Source: Nevskiales bacterium
Lineage (GTDB): Bacteria > Pseudomonadota > Gammaproteobacteria > Nevskiales > Nevskiaceae
Length of the DNA stretch: 24,000 nucleotides
Assembly: GCA_028698335.1 (NCBI GenBank)
Contig: JAQVDP010000021.1
Location: 37,622-61,621, forward strand
Direction of reading: 5' to 3'
Under the pieces are notes generated by a model. That model saw only the letters and a program-made list of their open reading frames with translations, made no database searches and was not told where the DNA came from. The position numbers and the translations under genes were made by a program. Shown here one piece after another: positions 19,838 through 23,344 of this stretch (its first letter is position 1; each line of letters starts with the position of its first letter).

Positions 19838-20656
19838 GTGACCACTACAGTCGAAACCCCCCGTGCCACCCCGGACAAGCCCATCCGTGCGCCTTGGAAG
19901 GCGTTCTTCGGAATGCTGGCGTTCTCAGCGGTGGTCTTCACCGTTTACCGCATCTACCAGCACGAGACCGCGTTCACCTTCGGCCTCGATTACTTCAACC
20001 CCGAGTTCGCCACCTACTGGATGAGCGTCCTGTACGCGGAACTCGCCATCGAAGTGCTGCTCGGCGCCGCGATCGTCGGCTATCTGTGGACGACACGCGA
20101 CCGCCACCTCGACAAGATCACGCCCGCCGAGGAACTGCGCCGTTACCTCGTGCTGATGAGCCAACTGCTGCTGTTCGGCGCGATCGCCTACGTGGTGACG
20201 TCGATCTACACCGAATCCGACGCCGCCTGGCATCAGGTCACGGTGCGTGACACCGACTTCACGCCGACCCACATCGGGCTGTTCTACTTCGGCGTTCCGG
20301 TCTTCATCCTCAGCGTGCTGACCGCATTCGTCTATGCCCGCACCCGCATCCCCGCCTTCGCCAGCAAGGTGTCGCTGCCGTTCGCACTGCTCGTCGCCGG
20401 CCCGGTGATGATCATGCCGAACCTCGGCTTCAACGAGTGGGGCCACACCTTCTTCTACGCTGAAGAACTGTTCGCGGCACCGATCCACTGGGGCTTCGTG
20501 CTGCTGGGCTGGGCCACCTTCGCCGCCGGCGGGCTGCTGGTGCAGATCCTGAGCCGCATCGTGCAGCTGACCCAGGTCATCGGCTCGGCCAGCGCGCAGC
20601 AGACCGACATCCAGGTCGAAGCCGCCGCCAAGGCGGAGCTGAACGCGGCTGCCTGA
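19838..20656 (+). CDS. amoC/pmoC: Copper membrane monooxygenase subunit C (PmoC/AmoC family)
   Basis: Full-length similarity by eye to M. capsulatus PmoC: [20 protein letters not shown] and [27 protein letters not shown]. CuC ligands Asp/His/His are at 20219, 20231 and 20270. CuD ligands Asn/His/His are at 20432, 20444 and 20486. The preferred start is GTG 19838, 5 nt after AGGAGAG (19827-19833). The ORF also opens at GTG 19814. Confidence 0.95.
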   Translation: [272 protein letters not shown]

Positions 20657-20686
20657 TTCCAAACACGCTGTAACCTCGCTTCACAA

Positions 20687-20722
20687 GGGGAGCCGGCTTC
20701 TTTGCGGCTCCCCCGTTTTATT
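20687..20722 (+). terminator. Terminator-like GC-rich hairpin in the subunit C / subunit A intergenic spacer (possible attenuator or mRNA-processing/stability element)
   Basis: GGGGAGCCG (20687-20695) pairs perfectly with CGGCTCCCC (20705-20713) around a 9-nt loop, followed by CGTTTTATT. The xmoA RBS GGGAGGAG (20724-20731) and ATG 20734 follow immediately. Confidence 0.55.
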
Positions 20723-20733
20723 CGGGAGGAGAA

Positions 20734-21486
20734 ATGTCTCAAGAACTAGCCGCCTCGGCCGTGCACAGCACCGCCGAGCAGCATCGGGTGCACGTCCAGG
20801 TCGACCTGCTGGCGATTCCGCTGGTCGTCCTGCTCTTTGCTGCCGTCTTCAGCTTCCAGTTCGCCCTGCTGGTCGGCGACTGGGACTACTGGATCGACTG
20901 GCGTGACCGCCGTTGGTGGCCGCTGGTGACCCCGCTGGCCCTGACCATCCTGCCGGCCGTGTTCGGCTACTTCCTGTGGGAACGCCTGCGCCTCCCGCTC
21001 GGCGCGACACTCACCATCATCGCGCTGACCGCGGCCGCGTGGATCAGCCGCTACCTGAACTTCCACCTGTTCGCGAACTTTCCGATGAACATGGTGTGGC
21101 CGTCGGCGTACATCGGCCTGGGCCTGATCGTCGACTGCATCCTGCTGCTGACCGGCAGCTTCTTCTGGACCGGGCTGTTCGGCGGCTTCGCCTTCGGCGT
21201 GCTGCTCTACCCGATGAACTGGCCGCTGCTGGCGCCGTTCCAGGTCCCGGTGGAGATGCACGGCACGATGCTGACGGTGTCCGACCTGATGGGCTTCGAG
21301 TACATCCGGACGGCCATCCCGGAGTACGTCCGCATCATCGAGCAGTCGACCCTGCGCACCTTCGGCGAGGCCGTCACCCCGCTGACCGCGGTCTTCGCCG
21401 GCTTCCTGAACATCATGAACTTCTGGTTCTGGACCTGGATCGGTTACCTCGGCAGCAAGGCGCTGTGGCTGCGCAAGATCGTCTAA
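20734..21486 (+). CDS. amoA/pmoA: Copper membrane monooxygenase subunit A (PmoA/AmoA family)
   Basis: 250 aa. Blocks shared with PmoA: GDWDYWIDWRDRRWW, LWERLRLPLGAT, NWPLLAPFQVPVE, IRTAIPEYVRIIEQSTLRTFG. A strong RBS precedes the start. Confidence 0.95.
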   Translation: MSQELAASAVHSTAEQHRVHVQVDLLAIPLVVLLFAAVFSFQFALLVGDWDYWIDWRDRRWWPLVTPLALTILPAVFGYFLWERLRLPLGATLTIIALTAAAWISRYLNFHLFANFPMNMVWPSAYIGLGLIVDCILLLTGSFFWTGLFGGFAFGVLLYPMNWPLLAPFQVPVEMHGTMLTVSDLMGFEYIRTAIPEYVRIIEQSTLRTFGEAVTPLTAVFAGFLNIMNFWFWTWIGYLGSKALWLRKIV

Positions 21487-21500
21487 GGAGAGCGAGAACA

Positions 21501-22736
21501 ATGAAACGACTGATCTCCCTGACCTGCTCGGCGCTGGTCGCGATGCTGAGCCTGGTCGCCGCGATGGAGCCGGCCCAGGCCCACGGCGAACGCGCGCAGA
21601 TGCCACAGCTGCGCATGCGTTCGGTGCACTGGTTCGACATCAACGTCTCGACCGTGAACATGCAGATCAACGATCTGATCAAGGTCACCGGCAGTTTCAT
21701 GCCGTCGAACTACTGGCCCGAGCACGTCCAGTCCATCGAGAAGACCGCGTTCCTCAACATCGGCGTTCCGGGCCCGTCTTTCGTGCGCCTCGACTCGCGG
21801 GTCAACGGCGTGCCGATGATCCGGTCGACCGCGTTCAAGAAGGGTGAGCTGTACAACTTCGAGATCACCCTGAAGGCGCGCAAGACCGGCCGCTACCACG
21901 TCCACCCCGTCATCAACGTCGAAGGCACCGGCCCGATCATCGGACCGGGTCTGTGGGTCGAGGTCGGCGGCGACGAGGCCGCCTTCGAGAACAGCGCCAC
22001 CACGCTGCTCGGCAAGACCATCAACCTCGAGTCCTACGGCCTCGCCAACGCGGCGTTCTGGTCCGGCCTGTGGTTCGTGATCGGCCTGGCGTGGTTCGCC
22101 TACTGGCTGCTCAAGTGCCCGATCGTCGTGCCGCGCTTCAAGCGCGTCAACGAACTCGGGCCGGCCGAGGCCGACAAGATCATCACCCCCAACGATCGCC
22201 GCGCCGGTCTGGTGTTCCTGGTTCTGGCCCTGTCGGTCGTCGCCGGCTCCTACATGTACACGCAGGAGAAATGGCCGATCACCACGCCGCTGCAGACCGG
22301 CAAGATCGAGGTGCCGCCGATCGACGTCGACCTGCCCCTGCAGGTGCGTCTGCAGGACGCGCGCTATCGCATCCCGGGCCGCAGCTTCCGCATGGAACTG
22401 GAAGTCACCAACAGCGGCGACAGCCCGGTCATGGTCGGCGAGTTCGCCGCCGGCAACCTGCGCTTCATCAACAGCGACGTGCTGAAAGTGACGCCGAAGG
22501 ACGAGGACGACCTGGTGGCCACCGACGCGCTGCGCGTCGAGGGCGGTCCGATCGCACCGGGCGAGACCCGCACCATCGTCGTCTATGCCGACGACGCCCT
22601 GTGGGAAACGCAGCGCATGACGACGATGATCGCGTCGCCCGACGCGCTGGTGGCGGGCATGCTGTTCTTCTTCGACGCCAACGGCGAACGCTTCCCGGTC
22701 GAAGTCGGCGGCATGATGATTCCGGAGTTCGTCTGA
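21501..22736 (+). CDS. amoB/pmoB: Copper membrane monooxygenase subunit B (PmoB/AmoB family)
   Basis: 411 aa from ATG 21501 (GGAGAG at 21487-21492). The signal peptide ends AQA|HGE, so the mature N-terminus is His28 (21582-21584). YHVHPVINVEGTGPIIGPG supplies the other two CuB-site His residues (21897, 21903). There are two central TMs and a C-terminal cupredoxin block: APGETRTIVV...LFFFDANG. The ORF-track entry 20913-22736 is an out-of-context 5' extension. Confidence 0.95.
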   Translation: MKRLISLTCSALVAMLSLVAAMEPAQAHGERAQMPQLRMRSVHWFDINVSTVNMQINDLIKVTGSFMPSNYWPEHVQSIEKTAFLNIGVPGPSFVRLDSRVNGVPMIRSTAFKKGELYNFEITLKARKTGRYHVHPVINVEGTGPIIGPGLWVEVGGDEAAFENSATTLLGKTINLESYGLANAAFWSGLWFVIGLAWFAYWLLKCPIVVPRFKRVNELGPAEADKIITPNDRRAGLVFLVLALSVVAGSYMYTQEKWPITTPLQTGKIEVPPIDVDLPLQVRLQDARYRIPGRSFRMELEVTNSGDSPVMVGEFAAGNLRFINSDVLKVTPKDEDDLVATDALRVEGGPIAPGETRTIVVYADDALWETQRMTTMIASPDALVAGMLFFFDANGERFPVEVGGMMIPEFV

Positions 22737-23344
22737 TGTGGCGCAAGCTCGCGGCGGCCACGGCCCTGATCCTGGGCCTGGCCGCCGGCCCCGCCTTTTC
22801 CCATGGCGGGGTCTCGGTCGAGGACGACGTCTGCATCATGCGCATCGGACCGTATCGCGCGCATTTCACCGGCTACCAGCCCGAATACCGTGCGACGCAG
22901 GAGTTCTGCGAGGACATCCCGGTGGTCGCACCGGCGATCATCGTGCTGGACTTCATCGACAACGCGCTGCGTGGCATGGACGTCGAGTTCAACCTGCTGC
23001 GGGATCGCGAGGGCCTCGGCGCCAACGCCCGCTACGAGGATCTCGGGTCGATGGAGCAGATCCGGCAGCACAGTCTGTTCAACGTGCCCGCCGCCAGTTA
23101 TCCCCGCGGCACGATCACGCTCGAACCGAAGCTGGAGGAGTCCGGCTGGTACATCGGCGTGCTCAGCGCCACCGACCCGAAGACCGGCGGCACCCTGCAC
23201 TCGGTGTTCCCGTTCCGCGTCGGCTTTCACAACTACTGGAAATACGCGATCGCGTTCGCCCTGATCGTCGCACTGTCGGTGACCGTCTACCGGGTCACCG
23301 GGCGCAAGCACAGGGCGGGCGCGACGCCCCCATCCCCCGCCTGA
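22736..23344 (+). CDS. Small secreted protein with C-terminal TM anchor, translationally coupled to subunit B (fourth gene of the CuMMO operon; family not recognised)
   Basis: ATG 22736 overlaps the xmoB stop (TGATG). 202 aa. Signal peptide MWRKLAAATALILGLAAGPAFS|HGG leaves His23 at the mature N-terminus. The periplasmic domain is about 150 aa with Cys33, Met35, His43 and Cys58. C-terminal TM: YAIAFALIVALSVTVY, then a basic tail. GC3-rich codon usage matches its neighbours. Confidence 0.7.
   Translation: MWRKLAAATALILGLAAGPAFSHGGVSVEDDVCIMRIGPYRAHFTGYQPEYRATQEFCEDIPVVAPAIIVLDFIDNALRGMDVEFNLLRDREGLGANARYEDLGSMEQIRQHSLFNVPAASYPRGTITLEPKLEESGWYIGVLSATDPKTGGTLHSVFPFRVGFHNYWKYAIAFALIVALSVTVYRVTGRKHRAGATPPSPA

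Follow-up and report, generated by a model that had tools for sequence, protein, structure and literature searches.

What substrate does a copper membrane monooxygenase (CuMMO) oxidize when it is encoded outside the lineages of methanotrophs and nitrifiers? This question is raised by the xmoCABD operon at positions 19838-23344 of a 24-kb stretch of DNA (the window) from a Nevskiales bacterium (Table 1). A first-pass annotation had read three consecutive frames as full-length matches to PmoC, PmoA, and PmoB, followed by a coupled fourth gene. The coordinates of all four genes are right, and the products of the three match the Pfam models AmoC (266 bits), AMO (265.5 bits), and Monooxygenase_B (412 bits) over the full length, with scores far above chance. 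Public contigs of this organism, called independently, yield the same four genes. In the fourth gene, the ATG shares one base with the TGA of xmoB, and because the product belongs to the PmoD/AmoD family, we name the operon xmoCABD. Compared with the nearest relative, Sinimarinibacterium arenosum, dN/dS is 0.04-0.07 for xmoC, xmoA, and xmoB (0.07 for xmoC against locus L001, 0.04 for xmoA) and 0.19 for xmoD, at dS near 1. Strong purifying selection acts on the three catalytic subunits, each of which is intact. Judged by its sequence, the operon encodes a complete CuMMO in a host close to Sinimarinibacterium.

Table 1. Features of the xmoCABD locus, in window coordinates
Feature	Position	Strand	Description
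MerR-family transcriptional regulator	16671-17513	+	280 aa; Pfam MerR_1, 76 bits
Serine esterase	17549-18379	+	276 aa; membrane-anchored or secreted; CE1 / PHB-depolymerase-like alpha/beta hydrolase
SCPx-type thiolase ("lipid-transfer protein")	18413-19594	-	393 aa; Pfam Thiolase_C_1 / Thiolase_N; divergent from xmoC
Putative operator and promoter	19699-19746	+	Begins 139 nt 5' of the xmoC GTG
xmoC	19838-20656	+	272 aa; GTG start; AGGAGA 7 nt upstream
GC-rich hairpin	20687-20722	+	GGGGAGCCG...CGGCTCCCC then GTTTTATT; xmoC-xmoA spacer
xmoA	20734-21486	+	250 aa; membrane subunit
xmoB	21501-22736	+	411 aa; signal peptide, a periplasmic pair of cupredoxin-like domains, two TM helices, and the CuB His brace
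xmoD	22736-23344	+	202 aa; predicted PmoD/AmoD-family periplasmic copper-binding protein
Multicopper-oxidase-like gene, 5' part	23614-24000	+	Membrane-anchored, two-domain; reading frame runs past the window end

All nine of the copper ligands of particulate methane monooxygenase (pMMO) and ammonia monooxygenase (AMO) are kept in XmoB and XmoC, and our alignments bear out the earlier identification of six PmoC ligands and three PmoB CuB histidines. In XmoB, CuB is formed by His28 (AQA/HGE) and His133/His135 (YHVHP), which are invariant in 23 homologues. In XmoC, the D, H, H of CuC and the N, H, H of CuD align with the ligand columns of solved PmoC, and these columns are kept with a clade signature. 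The PmoC strings that the annotation credited to Methylococcus capsulatus Bath are in fact alphaproteobacterial (Methylocystis/OB3b), and Bath has ...APLHYGF. The signature of the CuD loop is FFYA in the whole radiation to which the operon belongs, versus FWFM in pMMO. The side chains of FFYA are smaller than those of FWFM and adjoin a site that has been described as a small Phe-lined cavity, which would be consistent with a larger substrate.

Overall, the subunits are 38-49% identical to those of pMMO and AMO. XmoB aligns end-to-end with Bath PmoB (367 bits), sharing 44% identity with it and with the homologue of M. alcaliphilum 20Z; identity is lower against AMO (39%, PDB 9leg) and Methylocystis (38%). 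For XmoA, identity to Bath PmoA is 42% (224 bits). XmoC scores 240 bits against Methylocystis PmoC, and its identity to the protein of Methylocystis sp. M is 49%. The analogy to actinobacterial hmoCAB/bmoCAB drawn in the first-pass annotation is a poor one, as XmoB is only 26-29% identical to its counterparts in M. chubuense NBB4 and Rhodococcus ZPP. The true relatives are operons of Nevskiales and Betaproteobacteria (XmoB 61-86%), with S. arenosum CAU 1509 as the nearest isolate (XmoA 95%, XmoB 86%). The clade is already known and not new, as papers since 2018 have cited the operon of Solimonas aquatica as a CuMMO of unknown function and a protein identical to XmoB, from a Nevskiales MAG, is in NCBI (MDD3765010.1). 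The CuMMOs of Solimonas, Polaromonas, and Rhodoferax are labelled "unknown function" in the literature.

Two neighbor-joining trees, built with few canonical references and without Haliea, Cycloclasticus, or verrucomicrobial sequences, agree on the placement of this clade. In the XmoB tree (85 sequences, 402 columns, 100 bootstraps), support is 100 for the window with L001, 100 for the core clade, and 99 for the radiation of loci L001-L078 against the pMMO and AMO references. The concatenated XmoCAB tree (67 taxa, 895 columns), a check proposed in the first pass, gives the same nodes at 100, with Bath pMMO, Pxm, and actinobacterial Hmo outside and no nesting within pMMO or AMO clades. The operon falls in a clade of Nevskiales and Betaproteobacteria (100% bootstrap), with operons of Polaromonas, Rhodoferax, and Hydrogenophaga among its members; the clade is itself nested in a radiation from which pMMO, AMO, Pxm, and actinobacterial Hmo are excluded at 99-100%. 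The clade is, with good support, outside the methane and ammonia monooxygenases; together with the retained ligands, this upholds the earlier impression of a functional-looking CuMMO foreign to methanotrophs and nitrifiers.

The 3' end of the locus encodes predicted copper proteins. No Pfam or NCBIfam model matches XmoD, which has a signal peptide, a beta-sandwich domain, and a C-terminal TM helix; it is related to PDB 6CPD by sequence (phmmer E 5.5e-10) and by its AF2 model (pLDDT 88; Foldseek E 1.4e-11, TM 0.83-0.88). Its Cx9H...C motif comprises C33, H43, and C58, which are invariant with H23 in 35 homologues, and xmoD lies 3' of xmoB in about 76 of 80 related loci. XmoD is a PmoD-family copper protein of the Cx9H class, whose members do not form CuA. 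The multicopper oxidase is complete (525 aa) on the same-species contigs L086 and L087, where genes of 146 and 196 aa follow; its L001 homologue matches Pfam Cu-oxidase_3/_2, and its best PDB match is the two-domain enzyme 3G5W. Whereas most clade members have a copC-copD module at this position, in this sub-lineage it is occupied by the multicopper oxidase and a cupredoxin-like gene; copCD is indeed absent from the 24 kb, as the annotation had noted.

Upstream of xmoC, an inverted repeat (GTAGT-GCA-ACTAC, 19699-19711) is followed by a -35-like TAGACA (19718-19723), a 17-nt spacer, and a -10-like AAGACT (19741-19746). The consensus GTAGTnnnACTACnCACTATTGACA occurs on the + strand 82-164 nt 5' of xmoC in 17 Nevskiales loci and is nearly missing elsewhere in the 2.8 Mb searched. 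Because a generic sigma-70 scan called no promoter at 19699-19746, we only infer an operator and promoter here. The MerR-family protein, also called at 280 aa on public contigs, is a candidate regulator of the operon: it is without cysteines and has a long C-terminal domain of non-metal type, and its homologues adjoin xmoC in L001 (82%), L003, L004, L008, L011, L015, and L020. The hairpin between xmoC and xmoA (MFE -26 kcal/mol, z only -1.35) is putatively terminator-like or mRNA-stabilising; comparable hairpins of differing sequence, several with a U-run, directly follow the xmoC stop in most related loci.

The gene neighbors named in the first pass (thiolase, esterase, MerR, nrdA, and fpr, the reductase being FNR-type) were confirmed, and no genes for C1 or ammonia metabolism are among the annotated window genes. 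Alcohol and aldehyde dehydrogenases are also missing from the window and from the 3 kb that follow it in the same species. A survey of 31 core-clade loci found a PQQ quinohaemoprotein alcohol dehydrogenase in 15 (1232 bits to PDB 1KB0 for that of Rhodoferax), an aldehyde dehydrogenase in 15, mostly directly divergent from xmoC, a GMC oxidoreductase in 12, a DmdB-type acyl-CoA ligase in 7-10, and an ACAD/MaoC/SDR/thiolase block in 8; genes of the methanol dehydrogenase or hydroxylamine oxidoreductase type are absent from the recurrent clusters. These neighbors would point to alkane oxidation, not to methane or ammonia oxidation, and Polaromonas and Rhodoferax bearing xmoCABD, possibly of the same lineages as those in our trees, reportedly assimilated ethane and propane, not methane. 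We therefore consider it reasonably probable, from sequence and context, that xmoCABD encodes a hydrocarbon monooxygenase, most likely for short-chain alkanes, with dehydrogenases and beta-oxidation acting downstream. Because CuMMOs are promiscuous, chain length cannot be read from context. Near some operons we also observed a wax-ester synthase, AlkJ-like GMC enzymes, an SCPx thiolase, and a secreted esterase, which could reflect longer, branched, or oxygenated substrates.

A substrate other than a simple short n-alkane, such as a branched or cyclic alkane, a ketone, or a compound of an ester-hydrolysis pathway, is rather unlikely in our view; in that case, the pathway would include both the SCPx-type thiolase and the conserved secreted esterase. 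The esterase (N-terminal TM segment, GHSDGG motif) matches the NCBIfam PHA-depolymerase model weakly (37.5 bits), and its AF2 model (pLDDT 92) most resembles feruloyl and acetyl-xylan esterases and PHB depolymerase in Foldseek. Its family is rare, with 27 matches in the protein database, yet a profile search places it about 0.1-3.5 kb from the operon in 19 of 81 CuMMO loci from at least five subclades, and Ser151/Asp205/His255 and seven Cys are invariant in 26 homologues. The thiolase exceeds the NCBIfam PRK08256 cut-off (562 versus 436 bits), and homologues about 60% identical lie 5' of xmoC in L005-7, L010, L013, L014, and L044, in an ACAD-SDR-MaoC-hotdog-thiolase-ALDH block. A block of SCPx-type thiolase, MaoC hydratase, and SDR adjoins 7-8 operons, and such a set is typical of the oxidation of 2-methyl-branched acyl-CoA. 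Other CuMMOs act on acetone (verrucomicrobial PMO3) or, as proposed, on methylcycloalkanes. However, no link of this kind was found for esterase homologues outside CuMMO loci, the predicted periplasmic or secreted location of the esterase does not suit Baeyer-Villiger routes, which are cytoplasmic, no BVMO is among the recurrent neighbors, and the commonest catabolic neighbors are alcohol and aldehyde dehydrogenases.

It is improbable that the enzyme epoxidizes an alkene (ethylene, propylene, or isoprene), as proposed for marine Haliea. Ethylene-assimilating Haliea carries CuMMO genes, known CuMMOs co-oxidize C2-C4 alkenes, and the radiation is mostly gammaproteobacterial and partly marine, but the recurrent partners in the 31 loci are the same two dehydrogenases, with no CoM pathway, epoxide hydrolase, or glutathione transferase among them.

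A bacterial AMO serving heterotrophic nitrification is very improbable. XmoB exceeds the NCBIfam AmoB_BACT cut-off (513.9 versus 336), RefSeq (for the S. arenosum homologue) and the MAG annotation call it "bacterial ammonia monooxygenase subunit AmoB", and 3G5W, the closest solved relative of the downstream multicopper oxidase, comes from Nitrosomonas europaea. Against this, neither XmoA nor XmoC reaches any of the four NCBIfam AMO/pMMO equivalog cut-offs (for AMO, 270.8 versus 290 and 287 versus 319), XmoB lies outside AMO in the tree at the 39% identity given above, hao, c554, and cM552 are missing from the window and the 31 related neighborhoods, and the hosts are heterotrophic Nevskiales. 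That the enzyme is a true pMMO of an unrecognized methanotroph is hardly plausible: Bath pMMO is the top-scoring solved relative of XmoA and XmoB and its ligands are all kept, but identity is only 42-44%, none of the three TIGR pMMO/AMO equivalog cut-offs is reached, the clade stands apart from pMMO references, the alcohol dehydrogenases of relatives are of the quinohaemoprotein ethanol/butanol type rather than MxaF/XoxF, and the related betaproteobacteria are said not to have assimilated methane. A silent or decaying relic of horizontal transfer, such as the mosaic local synteny and the intermixing of gamma- and betaproteobacterial sequences in the tree (which implies transfer) might suggest, is equally hard to credit given intact reading frames, complete ligand sets, low dN/dS, and the conservation of the promoter motif and ribosome-binding sites.

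Under the favored reading of a short-chain alkane monooxygenase, the operon would be transcribed from a sigma-70-like promoter with a clade-conserved palindrome, probably under the control of the adjacent MerR-family regulator. XmoD and the multicopper oxidase/cupredoxin module may serve copper loading or electron supply, replacing copC-copD. Hydrocarbons, most likely C2-C4 n-alkanes and perhaps somewhat larger ones, would be hydroxylated at CuC/CuD of XmoC, and the alcohols so formed would be passed to quinohaemoprotein or GMC alcohol dehydrogenases and aldehyde dehydrogenases, presumably encoded elsewhere in this host. The resulting acids would be activated and enter beta-oxidation, and the divergent SCPx-type thiolase may be a remnant of a gene block for that purpose.

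The window contains an intact xmoCABD operon, a member of the copper membrane monooxygenase (CuMMO) clade found in Nevskiales and Betaproteobacteria. Codon-position GC indicates a single coding frame per region in the window (GC 64-74%), and the first three genes encode full-length matches to the CuMMO subunit families of Pfam, for which the cut-offs are 23-28 bits. Three full-length subunits in one operon, here in the order C-A-B, define the CuMMO superfamily. Genes called on public contigs from the same organism encode exactly these four products, and the identical calls together with the strong Pfam matches show that the coordinates and gene identities of the first-pass annotation were correct. 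XmoB is identical to NCBI MDD3765010.1, from a Nevskiales MAG, and aligns end to end with PmoB of M. capsulatus Bath (367 bits). Rfam and tRNA scans of the window returned no matches.

Features of the operon and its surroundings (positions in the window)
Feature	Position	Strand	Description
Ser/Thr kinase and FHA-domain genes	1365-3692		Divergent gene pair
PF10136 "site-specific recombinase"	5827-7884	-	685 aa; 700 bits
M36 fungalysin-type metallopeptidase	12560-16447	+	1295 aa; secreted; PA domain
Esterase	17549-18379		276 aa; N-terminal membrane segment; GHSDGG elbow
Thiolase-xmoC spacer	19595-19837
Palindrome and probable promoter	19699-19746		Ends with AAGACT
xmoC	19838-20656	+	272 aa; GTG start, AGGAGA site ahead; Pfam AmoC PF04896, 266 bits
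CuD-loop signature	20480-20545		XmoC residues about 215-236
xmoC-xmoA spacer hairpin	20687-20722		GC-rich, with U-run
xmoA	20734-21486	+	250 aa; Pfam AMO PF02461, 265.5 bits
xmoB	21501-22736	+	411 aa; Pfam Monooxygenase_B PF04744, 411.6 bits
xmoD	22736-23344	+	202 aa; ATG overlaps xmoB TGA by one base
Predicted mature XmoD N terminus	22802-22813		HGGV, His23-Val26
Two-domain multicopper oxidase (MCO)-like gene	23614 onwards (to 24000, window end)		Membrane-anchored; 525 aa on same-species contigs; best PDB match 3G5W

The copper ligands are retained. In XmoB, the CuB brace comprises His28, which directly follows the predicted cleavage at an AQA signal-peptidase site, and His133 and His135 in the motif YHVHP. 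These residues align with H33, H137 and H139 of the Bath enzyme and are invariant in 23 diverse homologues. In XmoC, the CuC (Asp, His, His) and CuD (Asn, His, His) ligands all fall in the ligand columns of solved PmoC structures, and all six are kept in 64 related XmoC sequences. Alignment to solved structures confirms the three CuB histidines and six PmoC ligands that had been read by eye; the PmoC strings then attributed to Bath are, by alignment, Methylocystis/OB3b versions, a harmless slip. The bis-His site of Bath pMMO, which is regarded as unimportant, is not kept in XmoB, where Met replaces the equivalent of H72.

No Pfam or NCBIfam model matches xmoD, which was identified solely by PDB sequence and fold searches. 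The sequence search returned one entry only, PmoD of Methylocystis sp. Rockwell (6CPD, E 5.5e-10). An AlphaFold model built from 35 homologues (pLDDT 88) has a signal helix (residues 2-16), a beta-sandwich and a C-terminal membrane helix (residues 168-193), and matches 6CPD with a TM score of 0.83-0.88 (Foldseek, E ~1e-11). The PmoD/AmoD family is defined by a signal peptide, a periplasmic cupredoxin-like domain, a C-terminal transmembrane helix and two invariant cysteines. XmoD has these features, with C33 and C58 invariant across the 35 homologues, and like pmoD its gene lies directly 3' of the B gene. It differs from 6CPD in sharing only 27% identity and in lacking the CuA motif Cx7MxHxnC: XmoD reads C33-IMRIGPY-R41-A-H43, with Arg at the position of Met49. 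This substitution places XmoD in the Cx9HxnC class and not in the CuA-forming subclass; PmoD proteins of the Cx9HxnC class bind copper and do not form a CuA site. Because the fourth gene is of the PmoD type, the operon is an xmoCABD, a layout already described for alkane-associated Betaproteobacteria, and almost all related loci have a pmoD-type gene after xmoB. Mature XmoD is predicted to start with a histidine that is invariant in the 35 homologues. After PmoD, the next fold matches are weak ones to AA10 LPMOs, enzymes with a histidine brace at the N terminus.

A genome scan with XmoB returned 80 loci. The nearest belongs to the type strain of Sinimarinibacterium arenosum, KCTC 72000 (formerly Sinimarinibacterium sp. 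CAU 1509; Nevskiales, Nevskiaceae), with identities of 88% for XmoC, 95% for XmoA, 86% for XmoB and 74% for XmoD. XmoB is 63-74% identical to homologues in Solimonas, Panacagrimonas, Nevskia, Polycyclovorans, Stagnimonas and Oceanococcus, 61-68% to those of the Betaproteobacteria Aquabacterium, Polaromonas, Rhodoferax and Hydrogenophaga, and 45-57% to those of many uncultured gammaproteobacterial MAGs. Neighbor-joining trees were built from this locus set, which was retrieved with patterns from XmoB's own family, and from few canonical references: Bath, 20Z, Methylocystis and one AMO rebuilt from PDB alignments, and M. chubuense NBB4 hmoCAB, Rhodococcus ZPP and Methylomagnum pxmABC from plasmid records. 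The XmoB tree (85 sequences, 402 columns, 100 bootstraps) joined the window operon to S. arenosum at 100, recovered a 30-member Nevskiales and Betaproteobacteria core clade at 100, and split the whole radiation of core and outer loci (L001-L078) from pMMO and AMO at 99. A tree of the concatenated XmoC, XmoA and XmoB sequences (67 taxa, 895 columns), for which actinobacterial Hmo served as the root, gave the same nodes at 100 and left outside them Bath pMMO, Pxm and two loci of a divergent Methylococcaceae type. Both trees group the operon with those of Solimonas, Panacagrimonas, Polaromonas and Rhodoferax at 100% bootstrap, and separate it from gamma- and alphaproteobacterial pMMO at 99-100% with this small reference set. 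Identities to clade members are 61-86% for XmoB and 71-95% for XmoA, compared to 38-44% (XmoB), 42% (XmoA) and 49% (XmoC) for the pMMO and AMO references and 26-29% for actinobacterial HmoB. In the XmoB tree, an Aquabacterium sequence (L012) lies beside one from Stagnimonas (L014), and the betaproteobacterial clade lies beside Solimonas aquatica (L020). This nesting of betaproteobacterial sequences among Nevskiales implies that the operon has moved horizontally between Nevskiales and Burkholderiales. A plasmid search found no plasmid-borne clade member, only Pxm and actinobacterial operons.

The Nevskiales operons most like the one described here are those of S. aquatica DSM 25927, S. arenosum, Panacagrimonas perspica DSM 26377 and Solimonas sp. 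SE-A11, which share its gene order, its clade (100% bootstrap), a signature in the CuD loop, an upstream palindrome and promoter motif and, often, the same MerR neighbor (XmoB 63-86%, XmoA 74-95% identical). The betaproteobacterial xmoCABD operons of Polaromonas, Rhodoferax and Hydrogenophaga (XmoB 61-65%, XmoA 71-73%) belong to the same clade and share the four-gene layout and identical CuC and CuD motifs, but they lack the Nevskiales palindrome, MerR gene and esterase, and have instead a MalT/LuxR regulator and a tight cluster of aldehyde dehydrogenase, GMC oxidoreductase and acyl-CoA ligase or PQQ alcohol dehydrogenase genes around the operon. Published work counts the operons of Solimonas aquatica, Polaromonas and Rhodoferax among the CuMMOs of unknown function, and a 2026 survey lists Nevskiales MAGs that carry such operons. 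This kind of operon is thus already known, and has no characterized members: in the literature we found no purified or physiologically characterized enzyme among the related proteobacterial CuMMO lineages that are neither methane nor ammonia oxidizers. A methylcycloalkane CuMMO of Porticoccaceae, described in a preprint, falls in a separate clade and is uninformative on the substrate here.

The genes around these operons provide further information on their function. When the ORFs of 31 core-clade loci were clustered and representatives annotated, recurrent neighbors included a PQQ quinohaemoprotein alcohol dehydrogenase and an aldehyde dehydrogenase, the latter usually divergent from xmoC (15 loci each), an AlkJ-like GMC oxidoreductase (12), a DmdB-type acyl-CoA ligase (7-10), a block encoding ACAD, alpha-beta hydrolase, SDR, MaoC, hotdog and SCPx-thiolase proteins (7-8) and a wax-ester synthase (5). 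These are the genes that one would expect downstream of an alkane hydroxylase. The Rhodoferax alcohol dehydrogenase, for example, scores 1232 bits to Comamonas 1KB0 compared to about 260-335 bits to methanol dehydrogenases. The S. arenosum locus has, within 7 kb, a pair of aldehyde dehydrogenases together with an SDR, a GMC oxidoreductase and a wax-ester synthase. The window itself holds only pieces of this set: an SCPx-type thiolase divergent from xmoC (PRK08256, 562 bits against a cut-off of 436), a MerR-family regulator and an esterase-like gene, with housekeeping genes further out, among them the M36 peptidase, nrdA and a reductase of the FNR type. The M36 peptidase, the PF10136 recombinase and the Ser/Thr kinase and FHA-domain pair are neighbors unrelated to the operon.

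Two alternative accessory modules were found 3' of xmoD. In 20-24 of the 31 core loci, including most Nevskiales members, the module consists of copC, a copD-cytochrome c fusion and an unannotated gene of about 160 aa. The window lineage, S. arenosum and a few others have instead the MCO-like gene and a cupredoxin-like gene (3983-6637 in L086, a contig of the same species; 11887-14530 in L001, the S. arenosum locus). On the same-species contigs, the MCO-like gene is followed by a 146-aa gene and the cupredoxin-like gene of 196 aa. Public contigs with the identical XmoB stop just past xmoD, and these downstream genes were read from other contigs of the same species. The MCO/cupredoxin pair is present in 4 of the 31 core loci compared to 29-31 of the 47 outer loci. 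No core locus has both modules, and the four outer loci with copC/copD (L029, L030, L031 and L036) all lack the MCO pair. The window lineage is therefore "core" by sequence while carrying the accessory module typical of the wider radiation, which explains why the first-pass annotation, correctly, found no copCD.

The esterase upstream of the operon also recurs. Its Ser-Asp-His triad and seven cysteines are invariant across homologues, and its structural model (pLDDT 92) resembles CE1-type enzymes, namely feruloyl and acetyl-xylan esterases and PHB depolymerases. The enzyme is disulfide-rich and its family is rare, with 27 matches in the protein database. The family profile strongly matches (124-360 bits) a protein in 19 of 81 CuMMO loci, which are spread over at least five subclades, always about 0.1-3.5 kb from the operon (for example, L001 7234-8109, L062 7342-8238 and L048 14671-15630). 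The association with CuMMOs is real but partial. A role as a universal CuMMO accessory was rejected, as more distant homologues, two of them from Nitrospira MAGs, occur in unrelated neighborhoods.

Comparison of the loci also revealed a probable operator/promoter, whereas a generic sigma-70 scan upstream of xmoC found no promoter. The palindrome GTAGT-GCA-ACTAC starts 139 nt 5' of the xmoC start and is followed, 6 nt on, by the -35-like box TAGACA, a 17-nt spacer and AAGACT. The consensus GTAGTnnnACTACnCACTATTGACA occurs 82-164 nt upstream of xmoC in 17 Nevskiales loci and hardly occurs elsewhere in the 2.8 Mb that were searched; it is also absent from the betaproteobacterial loci. The palindrome and -35-like box are found at the same position in L001-L004, L006-L008, L010, L011, L013-L015, L020, L023 and L044. 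The adjacent MerR-family protein is the obvious candidate to bind the upstream sequence GTAGTGCAACTAC; it is cysteine-free and hence not a CueR-type metal sensor. The coordinates of genes on either side of the thiolase-xmoC spacer are shifted by one base relative to two otherwise identical Logan contigs (L081 and L084), which suggests that the promoter region has a 1-bp indel polymorphism. The hairpin between xmoC and xmoA is not significantly more stable than shuffled sequences (z -1.35). Hairpins of different sequence, often with a U-run, occur directly 3' of the xmoC stop in most relatives, and on the strength of this recurrence the element may be a partial terminator or an mRNA-stabilizing element that sets C:AB stoichiometry.

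We conclude, with moderate confidence, that the operon most likely encodes a hydrocarbon monooxygenase acting on short-chain alkanes. The alcohol dehydrogenase, aldehyde dehydrogenase and acyl-CoA ligase genes adjoining the operon in relatives point towards alkanes. Using isotope probing and RT-PCR, Rochman et al. (2020) reportedly found that Polaromonas and Rhodoferax with xmoCABD use ethane and propane, not methane. The Polaromonas strains in our tree are not the single cells of that study; AER18D-145, for example, is a uranium-tailings isolate.

Essentially every XmoC of the radiation has a distinctive loop between the second and third CuD ligands, with FFYA where pMMO has FWFM, and ending in [A/G/S]AP[I/V]H. 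The CuC region reads DAAWHQ compared to DG[A/T]WH[M/Q] in pMMO. Relative to pMMO, the loop has Phe in place of Trp, Ala in place of Met and Ala/Gly in place of Val, all smaller side chains, near a site that has been described as a small phenylalanine-lined cavity. The smaller side chains may enlarge the substrate pocket.

There are two main rivals to an alkane substrate. One, which we consider doubtful, is that the native substrate belongs to an unusual class. Somewhat more speculatively, the FFYA radiation could be a distinct CuMMO type whose native substrate is not a C1-C4 gas. The conserved partners, a secreted CE1-type esterase and the MCO/cupredoxin module (mutually exclusive with copCD in the core clade), would then belong to the catalytic system and could, for example, be the periplasmic source of electrons or copper for a CuMMO that has long been sought, and XmoD, with its invariant predicted N-terminal His, would carry a new kind of copper site. 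We regard this proposal as improbable. The other main rival, alkene epoxidation, has a small chance of being correct.

HmoCAB of M. chubuense NBB4 and Rhodococcus sp. ZPP is likewise a non-methanotroph CuMMO with CAB order and a nearby acyl-CoA ligase, and the actinobacterial enzyme acts on C2-C4 alkanes and alkenes. The analogy to actinobacterial Hmo/Bmo drawn in the first-pass annotation did not extend to close relationship: HmoB is the most distant reference (the outgroup), and the actinobacterial operons lack a PmoD homologue whereas the window operon has one.

Methane oxidation by XmoCABD is unlikely. The three subunits align end to end with those of pMMO (Bath, 20Z, Methylocystis; 3RGB, 7S4H, 6CXH, 4PHZ), with identical CuB, CuC and CuD ligands and the same CAB order. 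However, pMMO falls outside the radiation in the trees, and the subunits miss the TIGR pMMO equivalog cut-offs (TIGR03078/03080/03079: C 252 vs. 280.6, A 251 vs. 318, B 379.6 vs. 394.9). No methanol dehydrogenase, C1 assimilation, hydroxylamine oxidoreductase or c554/cM552 genes were found in the 24-kb window or the 31 related neighborhoods, and genes of the methanol dehydrogenase or hydroxylamine oxidoreductase type are likewise missing from the recurrent clusters of the 31 core loci. Ammonia oxidation is also unlikely. AMO of Nitrosomonas and Nitrosospira (9CL6, 9PXF, 9LEG) has homologous subunits and ligands and an amoD/pmoD-type gene downstream, and XmoB passes the broad NCBIfam model AmoB_BACT (513.9 vs. 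336). In contrast, XmoB is 39% identical to the AMO subunit, AmoA_BACT (270.8 vs. 290) and AmoC_BACT (287 vs. 319) are missed, and no genes for handling hydroxylamine are nearby. Overall, XmoA and XmoC score below the cut-off in all four curated AMO and pMMO models, and XmoB does so in the TIGR model. Trees, identities and equivalog scores give no sign of nesting within canonical PmoCAB or AmoCAB, and with the gene context they support the initial interpretation of a CuMMO outside the methanotroph and nitrifier lineages. That the operon is a relic is unlikely for genes with dN/dS values of 0.07 (C), 0.04 (A), 0.07 (B) and 0.19 (xmoD) against the closest relative (dS near 1), which indicate strong purifying selection.

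CuMMOs drive methane and ammonia oxidation, and within the family it is their non-canonical relatives that are least understood. RefSeq and MAG annotations call the XmoB proteins of this clade, including that of S. arenosum, "bacterial ammonia monooxygenase, subunit AmoB" because XmoB passes the AmoB_BACT cut-off, and this name is probably misleading for genes of the clade. Such likely over-annotation could inflate counts of nitrifiers and matters to metagenomic inventories of the nitrogen and methane cycles; the CuD-loop motif offers a simple sequence marker that separates the enzymes of the radiation from methane monooxygenases. By itself the operon adds little, since public databases already contain its sequence and the clade has previously been listed as being of "unknown function". 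Three culturable type strains have close homologues, one with an XmoA that is 95% identical, and further handles are the CuD-loop change, the alternative between copCD and MCO/cupredoxin modules, the promoter palindrome and the recurrent esterase. The value of the operon lies in these testable leads and in a cultured strain with a nearly identical enzyme.
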